A DNA stretch of 63,998 bases, filler included, from Diploschistes diacapsis (Eukaryota): NCBI GenBank assembly GCA_023645945.1. It is 9 parts of 9 records of this genome, joined end to end, with 100 filler letters (N's around TTAATTAATTAA, not from the genome) between each part and the next. Parts side by side here need not be neighbours in the genome. Positions count along the whole stretch, not along the records: positions 4,690 to 31,679 come from JALAIB010000168.1; positions 31,780 to 36,367 come from JALAIB010001680.1; 7 more parts are not named here. The stretch is one strand, 5' to 3'. The notes under the pieces are model-generated. The model was not told where the DNA came from. It did not search any database and saw only the letters and a program-made list of their open reading frames with translations. Numbering within the stretch: position 1 is the first letter of the stretch; each line of letters starts with the position of its first letter. Shown here piece after piece: positions 24,025 through 32,391 of this stretch. A program made the translations under genes and the position numbers.

Positions 24025-25742
24025 TTAGGAAGACTCCTCTACCCTTCCGATCGATTCACCGTATTTCACTCTCTGTCCTTTTTGAATATTCCACCGCCAA
24101 CCTCCCTTGAGCTCGCCGCCATCCCATCCCTCGTCGAAACTACCTCTATGGCCCTTTGGTGCCTCAAAGACTAGGACGATAGAGCTGCCCAATTGGAAGC
24201 CGCCCATCTCTTCCCCTCTTCGAAGGGCGTGCCCCCCAAGAACACTGCTTGCTTGCTGATATGTCGCTTCTGCGAAGCCGCAGTATGGCTCCCCTCTCTC
24301 GGAAGCTTGTTCGGCTGCTCGGTCTGCTGCCGTATCGGTCGTAAGACTGTTCGTCCGCAATTCTTTGTCGAAGTTGATAACTATTGATCCGACATTCGTA
24401 GCGCCAACAAGCGTATAGCTAAAGAAGCCCCAACGCCATCGCCCAAGTAGAACGACGCGTTCGTTCAAGGTAAAGAGGCCTGGCAGAGTTCTTTGGAGGT
24501 AAGGTGAGACACTGTAGAGCTCCCCAGCAAAGTGACGTCTCTTCTCGACGACCCAAGAAACTGGCGAATGAAAGCGGTGATAGTCGCCAGGTGCAAGATA
24601 GATGACGACGTAATATAATGCCGTAGGCATCTTAGGTGAAGGCATGAAGAACCAATGCTTGCGACTGTCGCCGAGCGCAAGGTCGGCACGGACCTCCGCG
24701 ATCGATGAAGACTTCGATTTCGTGGAGGCATCCATGGGCGTGGCAGATTTGGCCTTTTTGCGCTTCTGACCTTCTCTGTAGTCGTTGGGCAAGGTGTAAG
24801 CGATACCATTTACATTCGCAAATTGTTCGTCTTCACGCAACGCGTCTCCTGGAGGCCGTTCCTTTTCAACCTCTCTGTGAGAAGTCGAAATGTCCTCCGG
24901 CTCCCCATCCAGCGTTGGAGATGCGGAGCCTAGCAAAGCCTCCAAACTGTATGTCATGCCCTTGACTTGTTCTACTTCCCCATGTTCTATCATACCATAC
25001 TGCAATACCTTTCCATCGGCAGGAGAAAGCAAAGCTGAGGGGTCCGCCGACAGGGGTCGAACACCAGGCTTGAGGCTTCTGTAGAAGAATGCCGCAAGAT
25101 TCGGATAAACATGCAGATCTTGTTCTGATGCCTCCGAAAGACTGATGCCTCGTAAGCTGGGTCAAAGCGGTCAGAGTTTACAACTTACTTTACACCAAAA
25201 ATCCAAGAATAGAGTTTGAATCCCGGTACCCGCAGATAGTAAGGGATTTGCAACTCATTGAACCGACCCCATAAGCGAGAAATGCCCTTTAGGGGGAGAT
25301 ACGCCATGAGTTGAACAGTCCTGAGAAACCCTGAGCAAGCCTAGCAACGGTATCAAGTAGAGGAGTTATACCACGGCCCACTGGGGCGAACCCTCTCTCG
25401 TCTCTTTGGCTTCCCCTCCTGCGAGCTGCCTCCGAAACCGGATTCCTCGAGCGTCTCTTCCTCTCGCCTTTGTTGCTCACGCGCGTGAACCCGATATAGC
25501 TGGACAGATCCAAGGAAGCCGATACCTAGCCCGATAGGTATCGGCCGCCATTGTATCTTCGTATTAGCAAGCGCATGTCTTAAGCGAGTTGTAAAGGGTT
25601 CTCGGTCCCACTGCCTTCCGGCTTTCCTTCTGGCCGTAGAGGCCGAAAAGTGTCGGGCAACAACATAGCGCTCTTGACAGAAGACGCACGCTTTGGTAAG
25701 GGACGGTGAGGAAACATTGTGTAAAGTTTTGCGCAGAGCCAT
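24025..25742 (-). CDS. PSD1: Mitochondrial phosphatidylserine decarboxylase proenzyme
   Basis: Presequence plus TM; FFYRSLKPGVRP; LSPADG; IYLAPGDYHRFHSP; NERVVLLGRW; VGATNVGSI; GFQLGSSIVLVFEAP (autocleavage LGS). Two introns. Confidence 0.95.
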
Positions 25743-28322: not shown

Positions 28323-30257
28323 TTATGTATTCAAGAAACACAATCTTCCTGAAGGATCTCGAACCCAATCCTCGGAACCCACGCACCGAGGGCACCAAAG
28401 CACACCCTCTGGATCTAGTTGCCGCTTGATCTCCAATAACCTTGGATAATGATCCCCCCAAAAAGCCTGTCTGAAATCAGGGTCATACGCATCTGCCTCA
28501 TTAGAATAACATCCCATATTCGGAGCGTGTTCTCGCAGCGCCGTGCTTAAAGTTTCTGTCATGTGTTTGATTCCAGATGCCTCTGCCTCCCGGTTCTTTA
28601 GCGGGTAGGTTGTTTTAGCCACTGGAAGCCGGTGTCAGTATTTACTGCCACAATATTCGCTTTTATATTATCTTTCACTACTTACTCATGTGCACTATTG
28701 TCTTCCTCCAAGCTGGACTGGCCGCGTTCAACTCCGTCCCTTTAGCATGCACACCGGGTCCACTGACCATAGCCCCTTGGAGCCAATCGCTTGCAAAAAC
28801 CTGCTCTACATGCTGAAATCCAGTTTTGTTCTTCAGCGCAGTAGCGTCCCAGAGCCATGAGCCCGCAATGTAATTCATTCCCACTGGCGCACACACCATA
28901 ACTGTCTCCCGGAAGACCTCGAAGTCTGGGAACTGGGGGTTCAGCACCGAGAGTGTAACGTCCTTTGTGACGTTCAGCTTGGCCAGAACGGGGTCAATGG
29001 CCGCATGTAGGTCATCCGATGAAGACAACATGTACATGAGGCCGTAGAACGTCATGGGGGAAGAGGTTGAATTTGCGTCAGAGGGCTGGAGATCGAAGTA
29101 GCCGATCAACCCCTTGTCGTTGAGCTCGGGTAACTGAGAGAAGAAGTAGGTCGCCGCATCAAAGAAGCCAGTATTATTACTCGAGGTCGAATTAAAGACC
29201 ACAATGGAAACCGACACCGGTGGTATAGGGAACGCTCGCAGCGTAGCATTTAAGAGAACACCGAACGTTGCGCCTCCACCCTATTCACTATCAGCCACTT
29301 GGTCAAGAGGGTCCGCGATTCCTGCGAAGTAAGCCACCTACTCCTCGCATCGCCCAGAAGAGATTCTCGTTCTGACATGCATTAGCAAGCACAATATCAC
29401 CTTGAGGCATCGCAACGGCCATCTCAAGTACATTGTCCACAGCCAACCCGTACATGGCGCTGAGCGGACCGTGGCCACCCCCAGTCAAATATCCTCCAAG
29501 CCCGACGTTCGGCTCCGCTGCTCCTACGAAAGAGAGATTACGCTGTTTCAGCTCGGCGTATACATCCCCCATAAGATGGCCGGCTGCAACGGTTATGGCT
29601 GTCTCGGGCAGAGAGTCAGTGCAACCTTGAGGCACGAAAGCTGTGTTAAAAGCCATGCCTTGGATATGGCGTGTCCAGATTGAAAAAGAAGAAGGAGCCG
29701 TCGACCTGAAATGATGAAAGCATAAGCATGAGCCCGAGCTTTCGGAGCAGCCTTTTTTGCAAGCATACTGACCGTCCCAGCAAGTCATGCCCTTCTCCCT
29801 TCACCACCGTCCTGACCTTCGTCTCGCGGGCAAATCTTATCGCTTCAACCACCTGCTCGGCATTTATAACGTTTGCAACATATGCTGGAAACGACGTCGT
29901 GTCACAGCTCTCCCCAACATCTCTATCAACGAGCTCGCTCGGGACACACGAGTCGTCCTGCCAATTCGGGTACATCACACTGACAGGATCTTCCGAGTGG
30001 AAGATCGAGCTCGACCACTGTGTCGCGACTTCTGAGCACCTAGCTTCATTGAATTGTGGACGAGAATTATCGCAGACGGCGGCGGGAGGCAGGGGAGCAA
30101 GCAATGCGCCGTCGAGGGAGGAGTTAAGGGAGTGCCATTGCTGAAGGGAGGGCCAGGAGGCATCGGTTGAGATGGGCTTGCAGGTGCGTTTGCTGATGAG
30201 GGAAACACAGAGAGCTGCACGCATGGCGCATAACAAGGCAATGAGCTTAGGGTGCAT
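28323..30257 (-). CDS. Secreted FAD-linked oxidoreductase, berberine-bridge-enzyme-like (multi-exon)
   Basis: Signal MHPKLIALLC; VVKGEGHDLLGRS; GGGHGPLSAMYGLAVDNVLE; LFWAMRG; BBE tail YSNEAD...FWGDHYPRLLEIKRQLDP. Confidence 0.92.
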
Positions 30258-31372
30258 ATTCTGAAGTTGCGTGCTGTCCGTACTGACAAGAGCCTGGCCG
30301 GGGACGTCCCTAATATAAGGGTCATGATTGAGACACCGCAATCAGGCGCGTACCATCTGTGCTACTGGTTCTACGCCGTTCCTAAAAAAAATATGGTATC
30401 ACTGTCGTCAAATGAACAACGCCGCAATCAGGCATCAATTCGCAGTCAGTGTCAGGGGTTTCTGAAACTCGAGGACGATGTGGGTCTGGATACACACAGA
30501 CGAGACCCACTAGTCGATCTCAAGATCCATTGGAAAAAGTGCCTGCGCCGCTTCTGAGAAGGGACCTCTCTGCACGAACTACGTGAGTACAAAGCTTGCG
30601 CACCGTCATCGAAGCATAGCCCACTGGAAGAATAAGGGTGGTCTATTCGCGAGAGAATAGCCAAAGAGTCATGTGGGTCTTATCTGCGGCATTAACGTCG
30701 TTAATTTTGTAGCGAGAAGATGCCTCGTTTCAACCGGTAGCTAATTCGGGAAAAACCCTAAATGTACGACATACGACACGACAAAGGTCAACATTGTCAG
30801 TTATATTGATTGAGAAGAAGGATTGTATTGCTCTGCAAGAGATGTCTGTAAGCGGATTATATACATTCTGTATGACTAATCATGTCCCCCTGCTCCTTCT
30901 CACACTCCCCCTAATTCGGATGCATTGCATCTTCGTATACTCCTTCTGAAAAGTCTGAGATATCTGATGCAGCTTCCTTTTCGGGGAGCTTCGCCCTAGG
31001 CCTGAATCTTAAACGGGTTTTCTTTCTTCTATTCTTCTTTGCCCTTGTTATTTCCCTATTTTCTTTTATTTTTAGGCTCTTATAGCCTTTATTACCGAAA
31101 TATTTAAATATCGTTTTAACGTTAAAGGGATCCTTTAAATATATTTAAATAATAACATTTATATTCGATAATATTATACTAGTAATACCTTTAAGTTCCT
31201 TATATTTCCTTTTTTAGTTGTTGCATTTAATTTTAAGTCGTAATATCTTCTGATTTTAAAGGGTTATTTTTATTTCGATTAAAATCACGGCGTTTTTAAT
31301 AAACTAGAAATCGCTAGCTAGCTTTAGATAAAATATAATTGTAAACGTTTCTAAATATTTTAATTTAAGAAC

Positions 31373-31664
31373 TGTTGAACTAAACCACTACGCCAAAAGA
31401 TGCGCACCACTTAGCAAGCAGCAGTTCATGTTTATATTCCGACACACCCCCGTAAACATGGCTCTGCGGCTCTTACTGTTTACCTGTGTTCTTTCCAGTC
31501 AGATCAAAATCTGCCGTAAGCGGGACTCGACTTCAGACCTCTGAACTAAACGGGTGGGGATGCAGCGCAGTGCGCTACCCGGGCTCATAATCTGTTGAAC
31601 TAAACCACTACGCCAAAAGATGCGCACCACTTAGCAAGCAGCAGTTCATGTTTATATTCCGACA
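31373..31664 (-). mobile_element. Complete non-autonomous miniature LTR retrotransposon (TRIM, Copia/Ty5-type priming), 292 bp
   Basis: Identical 72-bp LTRs at 31373-31444 and 31593-31664 with TG...CA ends. 5-bp TSD AGAAC at 31368-31372 and 31665-31669. Minus-strand PBS GATTATGAGCCCG next to the 5' LTR. PPT GGGGGTG next to the 3' LTR. 148-bp non-coding interior. Confidence 0.9.
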
Positions 31665-32391
31665 AGAACTATTAAATATNNNNNNNNNNNNNNNNNNNNN
31701 NNNNNNNNNNNNNNNNNNNNNNNTTAATTAATTAANNNNNNNNNNNNNNNNNNNNNNNNNNNNNNNNNNNNNNNNNNNNGGGGGGAAGGGGAAGGGAGGA
31801 GGGTAAGGGAGATCTTGGGGGCGTTTGCTATTGATTGATTAACTGGTGGGCTGAGGCGTTAGGGGGTTCAGGCTAGGGAAGGTAGGGCAAGGCACGAATG
31901 GGGTTTTGGGGGAGCGAGGACTGCTCTACTGCTTCGTCCTACGTCCATAACATTAAGCTTACCACATAATAGTAGATCCTAGTGTCATAAAAGAACAGGA
32001 AACAAGTAGAAAACTCAATTCTCCATCCGAAGCCGTGTTTTGCAGTGTTCATGTATCGAAAGCGCGCGTACCTGTTTCGGGAAGTGCTAATAGGTAGAAT
32101 TTGAGGTCGTTAGTGAGGTTTCTACGTAAGTTGCGCTTTAGCCGGTCTTAGTATGCCTGGCAAGGACTTGCTGCTTTGGACGCTGCTCCTACTGGCGGTT
32201 GAGGACAATAGGCACTGTAGAACTCAACTGATGCCAACAGATGCTGCCTCCAACAGTGATTGTTGATACTACTTCCACCATAAAGCTGACCAATAACAAA
32301 TAGATGCTGCACCAGGGTAGATTCAGCGGTATCGGATGCTACCTGAAGCTTTCCCAACTGCTCACATCATGCCCAAAACATGGCAGCTCCT

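Follow-up and report, generated by a model that had tools for sequence, protein, structure and literature searches.

Short, non-autonomous LTR retrotransposons of the TRIM type have been described from RIP-competent Dothideomycetes, with RLX_TRIM_Sinope of Parastagonospora nodorum as an example, and an escape from RIP below ~400 bp was proposed for them (Pereira et al. 2021, PMC8549362). Copia-type priming of fungal TRIMs from the tRNA-iMet anticodon loop has likewise been published (Kojima 2024, PMC10886601), and the novelty implied on both points in a preliminary description of the present locus therefore does not hold. In Helenus (311–1263 bp), a tRNA-like stretch with both boxes lies inside the LTR; fungal Helenus elements are reported from rusts and agarics, and "ascomyc" does not occur in the main text of that paper (PMC10886601). 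In Cassandra of plants the LTR accommodates the entire promoter, which is of 5S type 1 with A and C boxes, and transcription has been validated (PMC7215508, PMC10886601). The SMART element FRetro129, described from grasses alone, is 292 bp long; its LTRs measure 85 bp, and its interior and Copia partner share 96% identity (Gao et al. 2012, PMC3281118). The primer of Ty5 and Drosophila copia is tRNA-iMet cleaved in the anticodon arm (PMC5371799). TRIM transcription and the mobilising elements are mostly unknown, and are stated as open questions in PMC10886601.

The window, the whole stretch of 63,998 nucleotides (filler included) of Diploschistes diacapsis DNA that was analysed, contains a 292-bp TRIM on the minus strand, in which paired 72-bp TG..CA LTRs surround a 148-bp interior. 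Its features and those of the surrounding DNA are as follows.

30795 to 30906, minus strand: 112-bp 3' LTR belonging to the host LTR element (family C), whose PBS type is also tRNA-iMet
30907 to 31367, minus strand: host-element PPT, followed by the internal domain, which RIP has decayed and which resumes at 31670 to 31679 after the TRIM
31368 to 31372, no strand: left TSD AGAAC, which occurs once at seven paralogous empty sites
31373 to 31444, minus strand: 3' LTR, 72 bp, identical to the 5' LTR
31445 to 31451, minus strand: polypurine tract (PPT) adjoining the 3' LTR; Copia family A (L030) also has the tract, with a nearly identical LTR start
31506 to 31509, minus strand: T4 within the interior (T3 in long-variant copies); Pol III may stop leakily at it, which speaks against a clean terminator model
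31522 to 31532, minus strand: motif resembling a B box; it scores 11.6 bits in 10 of 13 interiors and 6.3 in the window copy
31538 to 31548, minus strand: second A-box-like motif, 13.7 bits, too near the B box to work with it
31562 to 31578, minus strand: leader hairpin with a 7-bp stem, including the complement of the tRNA-iMet D arm (31565 to 31572), a collinear extension of the PBS
31579 to 31592, minus strand: 14-nt PBS, complement of tRNA-iMet gene nt 26–39 (anticodon half), with a mismatch at 31591
31593 to 31664, minus strand: 5' LTR, 72 bp
31605 to 31615, minus strand: 5' LTR A-box motif scoring 13.4 bits, where native boxes range over 10.0–14.8; 3' LTR copy at 31385 to 31395
31615 to 31618, minus strand: T4 run immediately 5' of the A box, with which it overlaps; its copy at 31395 to 31398 is a candidate terminator in the 3' LTR
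31651 to 31656, minus strand: TATAAA, the sole TATA of the LTR, 41 nt ahead of the A box
31665 to 31669, no strand: right TSD AGAAC
31680 to 31779, no strand: assembly linker (N44, 12-bp all-stop linker, N44) between contigs, at the end of contig C757

The identical 72-bp LTRs, the AGAAC TSD, the PPT, the PBS, the 148-bp interior and the D-arm-like box reported in the preliminary description were all confirmed, and the TSD is perfect on either side. No ORF of at least 100 aa was found over the element, and the interior is non-coding. With short TG..CA LTRs, a length below 1 kb, a PBS and PPT, and dispersed copies with TSDs, the element represents a non-autonomous LTR retrotransposon (TRIM, SMART-sized) of a fungus.

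Compared with the systems above, the window TRIM resembles, by description, the RLX_TRIM_Sinope type in being short, non-autonomous and LTR-bearing, in having a high GC relative to other repeats, and in the proposed escape from RIP through shortness. That case compares GC and length across families (PMC8549362), whereas in the present family one unit can be compared as monomer, in tandem and embedded in Copia, and hybrids with a helper are seen. An anticodon-loop tRNA primer and a 5-bp TSD are shared with fungal Helenus; in contrast to Helenus, the 72-bp LTR has a TATA and A box only, and the B-like box is interior. In common with Cassandra, the family has an LTR that carries a T-run and a promoter motif of Pol III type, occurs in tandem arrays, and has a short predicted terminal redundancy, which would be ~18 nt if T4 is used. 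However, the Cassandra PBS fits the tRNA 3' end while that of the window TRIM fits the anticodon half, the candidate promoter is tRNA-type and split, and Rfam gave no match to 5S, by which Cassandra and Ajax are recognised. FRetro129 and the window TRIM both have short LTRs, a 5-bp TSD, solo LTRs and a Copia partner with a short LTR motif, PBS and PPT in common; the two were compared by description, and unlike that of FRetro129, the interior matches TRIM copies only, with no Copia match in the genome search. Their equal length of 292 bp is a coincidence. Ty5 and copia, although autonomous, use the same half-tRNA-iMet primer type; unlike theirs, the complementarity runs collinearly into the D arm in the window TRIM and in six metagenomic Copia-type leaders.

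The genome search returned at least 43 TRIM matches on 39 contigs, so the single-copy result that would have counted against a mobile family did not materialise. Of the eight two-LTR copies whose flanks are visible on both sides, six have a perfect 5-bp TSD, and so do 16 of 19 solo LTRs, each with a duplication of its own. These duplications support insertion by a Copia integrase, which would leave 5 bp duplicated; the solo LTRs would be left by LTR–LTR recombination. A second LTR subfamily accounts for 11 of the 43 LTR copies. In run X1, summed contig depth over the TRIM interior was ~26x single-copy depth, a figure that is not a copy number. No nearby second LTR indicative of other TRIM families was found in 40 further loci among 86 PBS matches (C4296 left out).

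The window TRIM is nested inside a decayed LTR element of family C. The left flank (31030 to 31367) is RIP-like, with GC 0.23 and a (CpA+TpG)/(ApC+GpT) ratio of 0.43, as against 0.49 and 1.15 within the TRIM. An earlier placement "inside RIP-erased DNA" thus holds for the character of the left flank but not for its extent, as the decayed surroundings, the interior of another LTR element, extend over just ~340 bp to the left of the TRIM and 10 bp to its right. Nor is the proposal that the TRIM inserted after its flanks had decayed compelled by the data, since zero differences in 72 bp of LTR bound divergence merely to below ~4%, and a sub-threshold, non-homologous insert could remain largely intact while the host repeat is mutated. 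Coverage from run X2 is absent over most of the host element, and from run X4 over all of it; these are blanks and not evidence of absence.

The window copy itself is not unmutated, as had been claimed. Relative to sister copy L008 it carries four C>T/G>A changes in the interior (unit positions 127, 146, 160 and 219), one of them in the PBS (31591); it is lightly RIP-touched and, given the changes in PBS and B box, probably impaired. Across the family, dispersed short copies show 1.6 C>T/G>A changes per 100 bp and those of the long variant 5.4, whereas the figure rises to 15.5 for tandem arrays and to 12.0 for copies inside Copia. RIP-direction changes numbered 24 in 1540 bp of seven monomers, 120 in 773 bp of four tandem units and 53 in 440 bp of two Copia-embedded units; the corresponding Fisher p-values (monomers versus tandem, 1.7e-40; versus Copia-embedded, 6e-20) overstate the difference because a high-GC reference biases polarity and sites within one copy are non-independent. 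In the monomers the 24 RIP-direction changes compare with nine reverse changes, six of which stem from a change private to the reference. RIP-direction changes number 17 and 18 in two long-variant copies that are not in tandem. As a correlation, these counts support a model in which a copy standing alone at a dispersed site is little affected by RIP, whereas that sequence suffers heavily when arrayed in tandem or lodged within a long Copia. The suggested escape from RIP accordingly stands for short dispersed copies but is partial, since tandem and Copia-embedded copies are heavily mutated and monomers are not immune. A RIP threshold of 155 bp would apply to linked repeats; a preprint describes strong RIP at close direct repeats and supports no more than that.

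With respect to priming, the PBS had been proposed to pair with the anticodon half of tRNA-iMet, and it is indeed complementary over 14 nt to the genome's own tRNA-iMet gene (L047, nt 26–39); in a BLAST search against 19 tRNA genes this was the sole match below E 0.05. The complementarity supports a step in which the tRNA-iMet 5' half would anneal to the PBS and prime minus-strand synthesis, probably pairing with the D-arm box too. The predicted duplex with tRNA-iMet nt 1–39 is −51.6 kcal/mol in the short and −67.0 kcal/mol in the long variant, as compared to −37.9 to −49.0 kcal/mol in four host Copia leaders. With the change at 31591, the final two bases of the primer are left unpaired, and the PBS duplex is predicted at −22.9 kcal/mol, against −28.3 kcal/mol otherwise. 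The D-arm box was rejected as a TRIM-only feature: of seven metagenome matches, six are Copia-type leaders and one is a tRNA gene, and none is a relative of the TRIM itself. Pfam identified gag in L142, L144 and L148 among these leaders and no family in L146 (L145 and L147 were unscanned), and a RIP-compatible version of the box occurs in 13 of 45 non-TRIM leaders of the genome, all of one family. A second tRNA in the interior was also considered and set aside; no parent tRNA was identified, and a tRNA-3'-end-like pattern gave 18 matches (up to two mismatches), 17 of them in TRIM copies and one outside.

Evidence for the mobilising element comes from Copia sequences. A 442-bp Copia-A LTR, tied to an RVT_2 domain on L030, has the first seven and last ten bases of the TRIM LTR and the same PPT. 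In three copies (L014, L015, L016), the TRIM interior switches to the Copia-A LTR exactly at the PBS. The 3' LTR of L010 consists of the TRIM tip and the last 145 bp of the Copia-A LTR, starting 35 bp past the Copia-A TATA, and L004 carries LTRs of two subfamilies within one perfect TSD. In L024 a Copia-B gag frame (PF14223, Retrotran_gag_2) follows a TRIM LTR whose tip consists of 11 bp of Copia, as one open gag-protease frame running off the contig; a search for the other end of this hybrid returned L024 alone. The hybrids strengthen the earlier claim of Copia mobilisation, itself consistent with the common LTR ends, PPT and PBS, and suggest the genome's own Ty1/copia families A and B as helpers acting in trans. 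TRIM RNA would be co-packaged with both, and plus-strand strong-stop DNA could jump between molecules via the common PBS; such jumps would yield hybrids that join a Copia LTR to a TRIM, TRIMs whose two LTRs differ, and tandem arrays. The accompanying claim of recent activity fared less well. No long open frame was found among 80 Copia-RT matches, with the best candidates scored in a fragmented assembly; three are short partial matches without stops, and no open frame exceeded 111 aa on two contigs checked. Integrase matches in the genome are only three, and weak. Present TRIM activity is therefore unsupported, because no intact helper was seen. Taken jointly, half-tRNA priming, Copia co-packaging and integration, and lighter RIP in dispersed monomers make up a picture that is quite probably correct.

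The arrangement of motifs in the LTR and interior is consistent with a candidate Pol III promoter of tRNA type that would be split across the PBS, with TATA and A box in the LTR and B box beyond. Its A and B boxes, spotted by eye ahead of statistical testing, reach a pair score that was equalled in 0/300 and 1/300 shuffles. That score is 25.0, against at most 13.0 in 22 non-TRIM LTR or leader controls (many of the Copia controls being RIP-decayed), and over 556 tiles of the window the maximum was 19.7, the top tile being the window TRIM. The A-box score stays above 10 in 40 of 43 LTR copies, and the three A-box bases changed in the 11-copy subfamily all lie at tolerant positions (few events; p ~0.06). 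Other properties fit less closely. The B-like motif has G where host tRNA genes have T (18/19) or A (1/19) and is outscored by 18 of these 19 genes; A-to-B spacing is 83 or 91 nt, versus 43–75 nt in the tRNA genes, after 15 of which the first T-run is T5 or longer, versus T4 in the LTR. The best B-box score inside the LTR is 2.4 bits, and the window copy scores 6.3 bits at the interior motif because of the change at 31532. Set beside the Pol III-driven TRIMs known as TRIMp3, the geometry is mixed, with a native-like distance from TATA to A box and a strong A box, but a B box that is weak and distant and a terminator that is short. The second A-box-like motif is a possible remnant of a deleted tRNA or SINE head. 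ARAGORN found no tRNA in the window, and Rfam over 31000 to 31680 gave three chance-level matches, with no tRNA and no 5S at E up to 10. A whole-element fold (z = −2.98) was set aside, being mostly LTR–LTR pairing that a real transcript would not hold. Under the proposed layout, RNA polymerase III is the most likely producer of TRIM RNA, which would start in the 5' LTR; only a 5' LTR with its following interior would fire, and solo and 3' LTRs would be silent. On these motifs, the chances that such a promoter drives the TRIM are about evenly divided.

Several other explanations bear on these observations. That the element is a contig-end assembly artefact or a chance direct repeat is suggested by the contig ending 10 bp past the right TSD, where the N44-linker-N44 join follows, and is refuted by the site itself: seven of ten host-repeat paralogues show an empty site, with a single pentamer (or a one-transition variant) and then a match to the window's right flank, while three stop or diverge ahead of the site. 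Many independent copies have their own TSDs, and the family is present in three sequencing runs from three studies, one run perhaps being the source; the window TRIM is a genuine element. The low RIP load of monomers might reflect youth instead of length, that is, transposition after the last strong round of RIP, as their 96–97% identity with C>T bias and the larger number of changes in long-variant monomers would allow. This is rather unlikely, given that tandem and Copia-embedded units of the same subfamily carry 8–10x more changes, that the inner unit of array L013 is worst damaged (55 changes in 220 bp), and that the family is not brand-new, since it occurs in two other runs where flanking DNA differs by ~2.5–4%. 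The extended tRNA 5'-half match could have been captured by a reverse transcriptase that copied the half-tRNA primer in full and misread putatively modified bases at G9 and G26. The long variant is collinear with tRNA nt 5–39 and departs at nt 8–9, 21 and 25, corresponding to canonical U8/G9, G22 and G26, and m1G9 and m2,2G26 generally provoke misincorporation (PMC8062790). Yet the departures retain G-U pairing with the primer and pair mutually in the 7-bp leader hairpin, and since autonomous Copia elements from other sources have the D-arm box too, simple descent from a Copia leader is explanation enough; read-through is an improbable origin. The hybrids, in turn, could have arisen by DNA-level ectopic recombination or mis-joins and not in shared particles, and would then not identify the helper. 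The short-read assembly is fragmented (4361 contigs), the second flank of L014 is one base long, L024 occurs once, with one end out of view, and a 1-LTR circle integrating at the common 21 bp could also produce L015 and L016. Part of the mosaic picture may indeed have this origin, because some flanks are swapped between contigs (among L074, L010 and L018, and between L080 and L077). As a general account it is nonetheless unlikely: the junctions have just ~21 bp in common (PBS and LTR tip), or ~5 bp in L010, those of L015 and L016 carry copy-specific RIP changes, and they sit where reverse-transcription transfers occur (at the PBS, and near the predicted Copia-A start site). LTR ends and PPT independently indicate the same Copia families.

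The alternative to a Pol III promoter is an ordinary Pol II TRIM, whose TATA would serve Pol II and whose A- and B-like motifs would be relics of a captured tRNA or SINE piece or elements of RNA structure; in one variant, a U5-leader stem can form between the A-box sequence and the D-arm complement of the leader. A TATA would be expected under Pol II too. The host Copia-A LTR has one as well, the weak B box, long spacing and T4-only terminator fit this account, and the U5-leader duplex is −16.3 kcal/mol in the common LTR type. Against it, the 11-of-43-copy subfamily loses this pairing (−8.6 to −9.2 kcal/mol) yet retains the A box, the 41-nt distance from TATA to A box lies at the host tRNA mode of 41–43 nt (36–46 nt in 16 of 19 genes), and the A+B pair is present in none of the 22 controls. 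An ordinary Pol II TRIM is thus a serious contender, falling a little short of an even chance. The full proposal of a split Pol III promoter, in a TRIM of a RIP-competent fungus that lies below the RIP threshold and whose hybrids with two Copia families are fossils of co-packaging and strand transfer that name the helper, is tentative, and it too is slightly more doubtful than a coin toss.

No TRIM with a TATA and A box in the LTR and a B-like box beyond the PBS was found in the open-access literature (Repbase and the Kojima supplements excluded). The family supplies natural hybrids that name helpers and a within-family comparison of RIP by length and arrangement. Without the promoter reading it is a well-documented yet ordinary fungal TRIM. 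If the motifs work, it would represent a third Pol III design, with a promoter split across the PBS that LTR-only screens miss; only intact elements would then be transcribed, and the whole parasite would be contained in 292 bp, below the RIP threshold.

The minus-strand TRIM at 31368–31669 has the LTRs, TSD, PBS, PPT and second box that the preliminary description assigned to it.

31373–31444 and 31593–31664: LTRs, 72 bp and identical, with a 148-bp interior between them
Both sides of the TRIM: TSD, AGAAC
31445–31451, minus strand: PPT
31565–31572, minus strand: D-arm-like box
31579–31592, minus strand: PBS
30795–30913: 3′ LTR (112 bp) and PPT of the host element
4590, 31680, 36368, 41053, 45735, 50415, 55070 and 59725: starts of the N-runs in the window

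Contig C757 ends 10 bp past the right TSD, so an assembly artefact needed to be excluded. The left flank belongs to the interior of another LTR element, the host in which the TRIM is nested. Among 10 host-element paralogues examined, seven carry an empty site, recognizable as a single pentamer followed by DNA that matches the right flank, while the remaining three stop or diverge before this point; the TRIM insertion is real, as is its TSD. The host element (30795–31367 and 31670–31679) is the 3′ end of a member of a different LTR family, also primed by tRNA-iMet, with LTRs of 112–118 bp that stay nearly intact, a PBS match of 16–17 nt and a RIP-decayed interior. A contig from public sequencing run X3 matches the flank up to 30794 and then continues into unlike sequence, hinting at an orthologous site that would lack the host element. 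Two minus-strand genes lie near the nested elements, one for phosphatidylserine decarboxylase (24025–25161; PF02666) and one for a probable FAD-binding oxidoreductase (28323–30341; PF01565 match weak and below cut-off). The window joins unrelated contigs by N44, a 12-bp all-stop linker and N44, and the sides of a join are not genome neighbours.

A search of the 29.1-Mb genome (4361 contigs) returned at least 43 matches on 39 contigs, confirming a multicopy family with distinct 5-bp TSDs. Perfect TSDs flank six of the eight two-LTR copies with both flanks visible (L003 matches at 4/5 bases and L009 has none) as well as 16 of 19 solo LTRs, each with a different pentamer; some solo LTRs could be collapsed assemblies. 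The LTRs form two subfamilies and the interior two variants, of 148 and about 155 bp. Pieces of the family occur in two other public runs, where flanking DNA is ∼2.5–4% different, and one of these runs contains the long interior variant. A tandem array is divided between loci L013 and L011, apparently broken by insertion of a Copia-B element with a 5-bp duplication. Flanking pentamers are swapped between different insertions (L074/L010/L018 and L080/L077), reflecting either ectopic recombination between 72-bp LTRs or mis-joins. At the end of contig C3116 (L084:539–649), a TRIM LTR appears as a scrambled fold-back with a short internal palindrome at the junction, probably an artefact.

RIP-type changes were scored against a real sister copy, L008, rather than a consensus. 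The window copy had been described as unmutated, but its interior carries four C>T/G>A changes, at unit positions 127, 146, 160 and 219. The last falls in the PBS, where it weakens the predicted duplex from −28.3 to −22.9 kcal/mol and leaves the last two primer bases unpaired. Nor does the RIP contrast with the flanks date the insertion to after their decay, as had been proposed, since a non-homologous, sub-threshold insert could survive mutation of the surrounding repeat; the identical 72-bp LTRs bound divergence only at < about 4%. Across the family, C>T/G>A changes per 100 bp amount to 1.56 in seven short monomers (24/1540), 5.4 in four long-variant units (43/796, subfamily differences included), 12.0 in two Copia-embedded units (53/440) and 15.5 in four tandem units (120/773). 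In the tandem units, CpA (46/113), CpT (40/104) and CpC (27/95) are mutated and CpG is mostly spared (7/82); the inner array unit is the most damaged. The same unit is thus spared as a single copy and mutated within longer or linked repeats, as expected if length and linkage matter. The Fisher p values for this contrast (1.7e-40 and 6e-20) exaggerate its significance, because the reference was chosen for high GC and sites within copies are not independent. Escape from RIP through shortness holds only in part: monomers remain directionally biased (24 vs 9 reverse changes, six of the nine being a change private to L008), and the counts rise to 17 in L009 and 18 in L012. The RIP length threshold in N. 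crassa is about 400 bp as cited in PMC8549362, and strong RIP of close direct repeats is described in a preprint. The genome yielded two C5 DNA-methyltransferase matches, L192 and L193, one single-domain and one in a very long frame; no third was seen, two candidates having been scored. These may resemble RID and DNMT5. Taken with the RIP-like pattern, the two matches suggest that the fungus carrying the TRIM is probably a filamentous ascomycete.

The tRNA search (44 matches, from 63 scored of 1216 candidates) found one tRNA-iMet gene, L047, and intact PBS copies match its nt 26–39 exactly, bearing out the proposed pairing with the anticodon half, the half from which Ty5 and copia also prime (PMC5371799). 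The second box likewise proved real: it extends the PBS collinearly into D-arm complementarity. In the long variant, alignment covers tRNA-iMet nt 5–39, and predicted duplexes with the tRNA 5′ half reach −67.0 (long) and −51.6 kcal/mol (short), compared with −37.9 to −49.0 kcal/mol for four Copia leaders of the same genome. Extended D-arm complementarity was rejected as a TRIM-only trait: when metagenomes were scanned for the box together with the PBS, one of the seven matches was a tRNA gene and the other six were Copia-type leaders, three of them with confirmed gag, and a decayed box occurs in 13 of 45 non-TRIM leaders in the source genome. The metagenomic leaders (L142, L144–L148) are complementary to the greater part of the tRNA-iMet 5′ half; in the best of them, pairing is broken at canonical positions 25–26. 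For such an extended half-tRNA PBS no published description was found. The TRIM departs from tRNA-iMet at canonical positions 8–9, 22 and 26, which first suggested capture via read-through of modified tRNA bases (PMC8062790). However, these departures keep G-U pairing with the primer and pair with one another in a 7-bp hairpin, so read-through capture is only a rival explanation.

Motifs first spotted by eye, and tested afterwards with matrices from 19 nuclear tRNA genes, constitute a candidate Pol III promoter split across the PBS. The sense LTR contains an A box (31605–31615; 13.4 bits, native 10.0–14.8) and the interior a second A-like motif (13.7 bits) and a B-like motif (31522–31532; 11.6 bits, native 9.0–16.8), the latter lowered to 6.3 in the window copy by the change at 31532. 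The LTR-A and B pair was equalled by 0/300 and 1/300 dinucleotide shuffles (antisense strand, 53/300 and 5/300). The pair scores 25.0, whereas 22 non-TRIM LTR/leader controls, many of them decayed, do not exceed 13.0 and 556 window tiles do not exceed 19.7, the top tile being the TRIM itself. The sole TATA of the LTR begins 41 nt upstream of the A box, and 16 of 19 tRNA genes have TATA 36–46 nt before theirs (mode 41–43), although a Pol II TATA would appear identical. The upstream layout of these tRNA genes (L112–L141) looks strongly TATA-dependent for Pol III. An A score above 10 is kept in 40/43 LTR copies; the three base differences of an 11-copy LTR subfamily all fall at tolerant positions (p about 0.06), and this subfamily lacks the alternative U5-leader pairing. 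Against Pol III, the B box has G where 18/19 tRNA genes have T and scores below 18 of them, and A-to-B spacing is 83/91 nt as opposed to 43–75. One T4 run overlaps the A box at its start and a second lies within the interior, while the first T-run after native genes is at least T5 in 15/19. Judged from these motifs, Pol III transcription of the TRIM is about an even bet.

Copia-A (442-bp LTR, linked to an RVT_2 domain at L030) has in common with the TRIM the PPT, 7 bases at the start of the LTR and 10 at its end, and little else. An intact helper was not seen among the reverse transcriptase and integrase matches in the genome: 3/80 RT matches lack stops, all short, with the two checked on decayed contigs, and the only three integrase matches are weak. 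Five loci are hybrids. In L014 the TRIM 5′ LTR is replaced by a Copia-A LTR, the change-over falling at the PBS; L015 and L016 each have a TRIM unit flanked on one side by a Copia-A LTR and on the other by the PBS and interior of the Copia itself. In L010 the 3′ LTR consists of a TRIM tip and the final 145 bp of the Copia-A LTR, starting 35 bp after the TATA of that LTR. In L024 a Copia-B gag-protease frame (PF14223), open for 324 aa up to the contig end, is preceded by a TRIM LTR tipped with 11 bp of Copia; every other copy in the comparison shows more RIP damage than this locus (polarised differences against L105, 112 vs 2). Positions 1–1175 of L024 (contig C1457) are nearly free of RIP damage; mutation is heavy in the four sister copies with which they were compared. 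L004 has a perfect TSD enclosing LTRs of both subfamilies. The simplest common cause of the hybrids and L004 would be co-packaging accompanied by intermolecular strand transfer, on the plus strand through the shared PBS and, for L010, on the minus strand via microhomology. Both template switching and chimeric TRIMs have been described in plants (PMC7215508, PMC13570524). Weighing against co-packaging, the assembly is fragmented and certain flanks are exchanged between contigs, the second flank of L014 is a single base, and a search did not find the other end of L024.

The element is a TRIM by every criterion tested, and the core claims of the preliminary description are largely known biology. 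Fungal TRIMs have been published (PMC8549362, PMC4646964), as have their proposed escape from RIP through shortness (PMC8549362) and, for SMART, the 292-bp size (PMC3281118). Copia-dependent fungal TRIMs that combine an iMet anticodon-loop PBS with a 5-bp TSD are already published as Helenus (PMC10886601); membership is ruled out because, unlike in Helenus, the LTR of the TRIM studied here has no B box (best score 2.4 bits). Absence of 5S in the window TRIM likewise rules out Cassandra and Ajax. Searches of the open-access literature found no TRIM whose promoter is split by the PBS. The element may work like a TRIMp3, and its helper hybrids, its candidate split promoter and the within-family comparison of RIP damage are worth following up.
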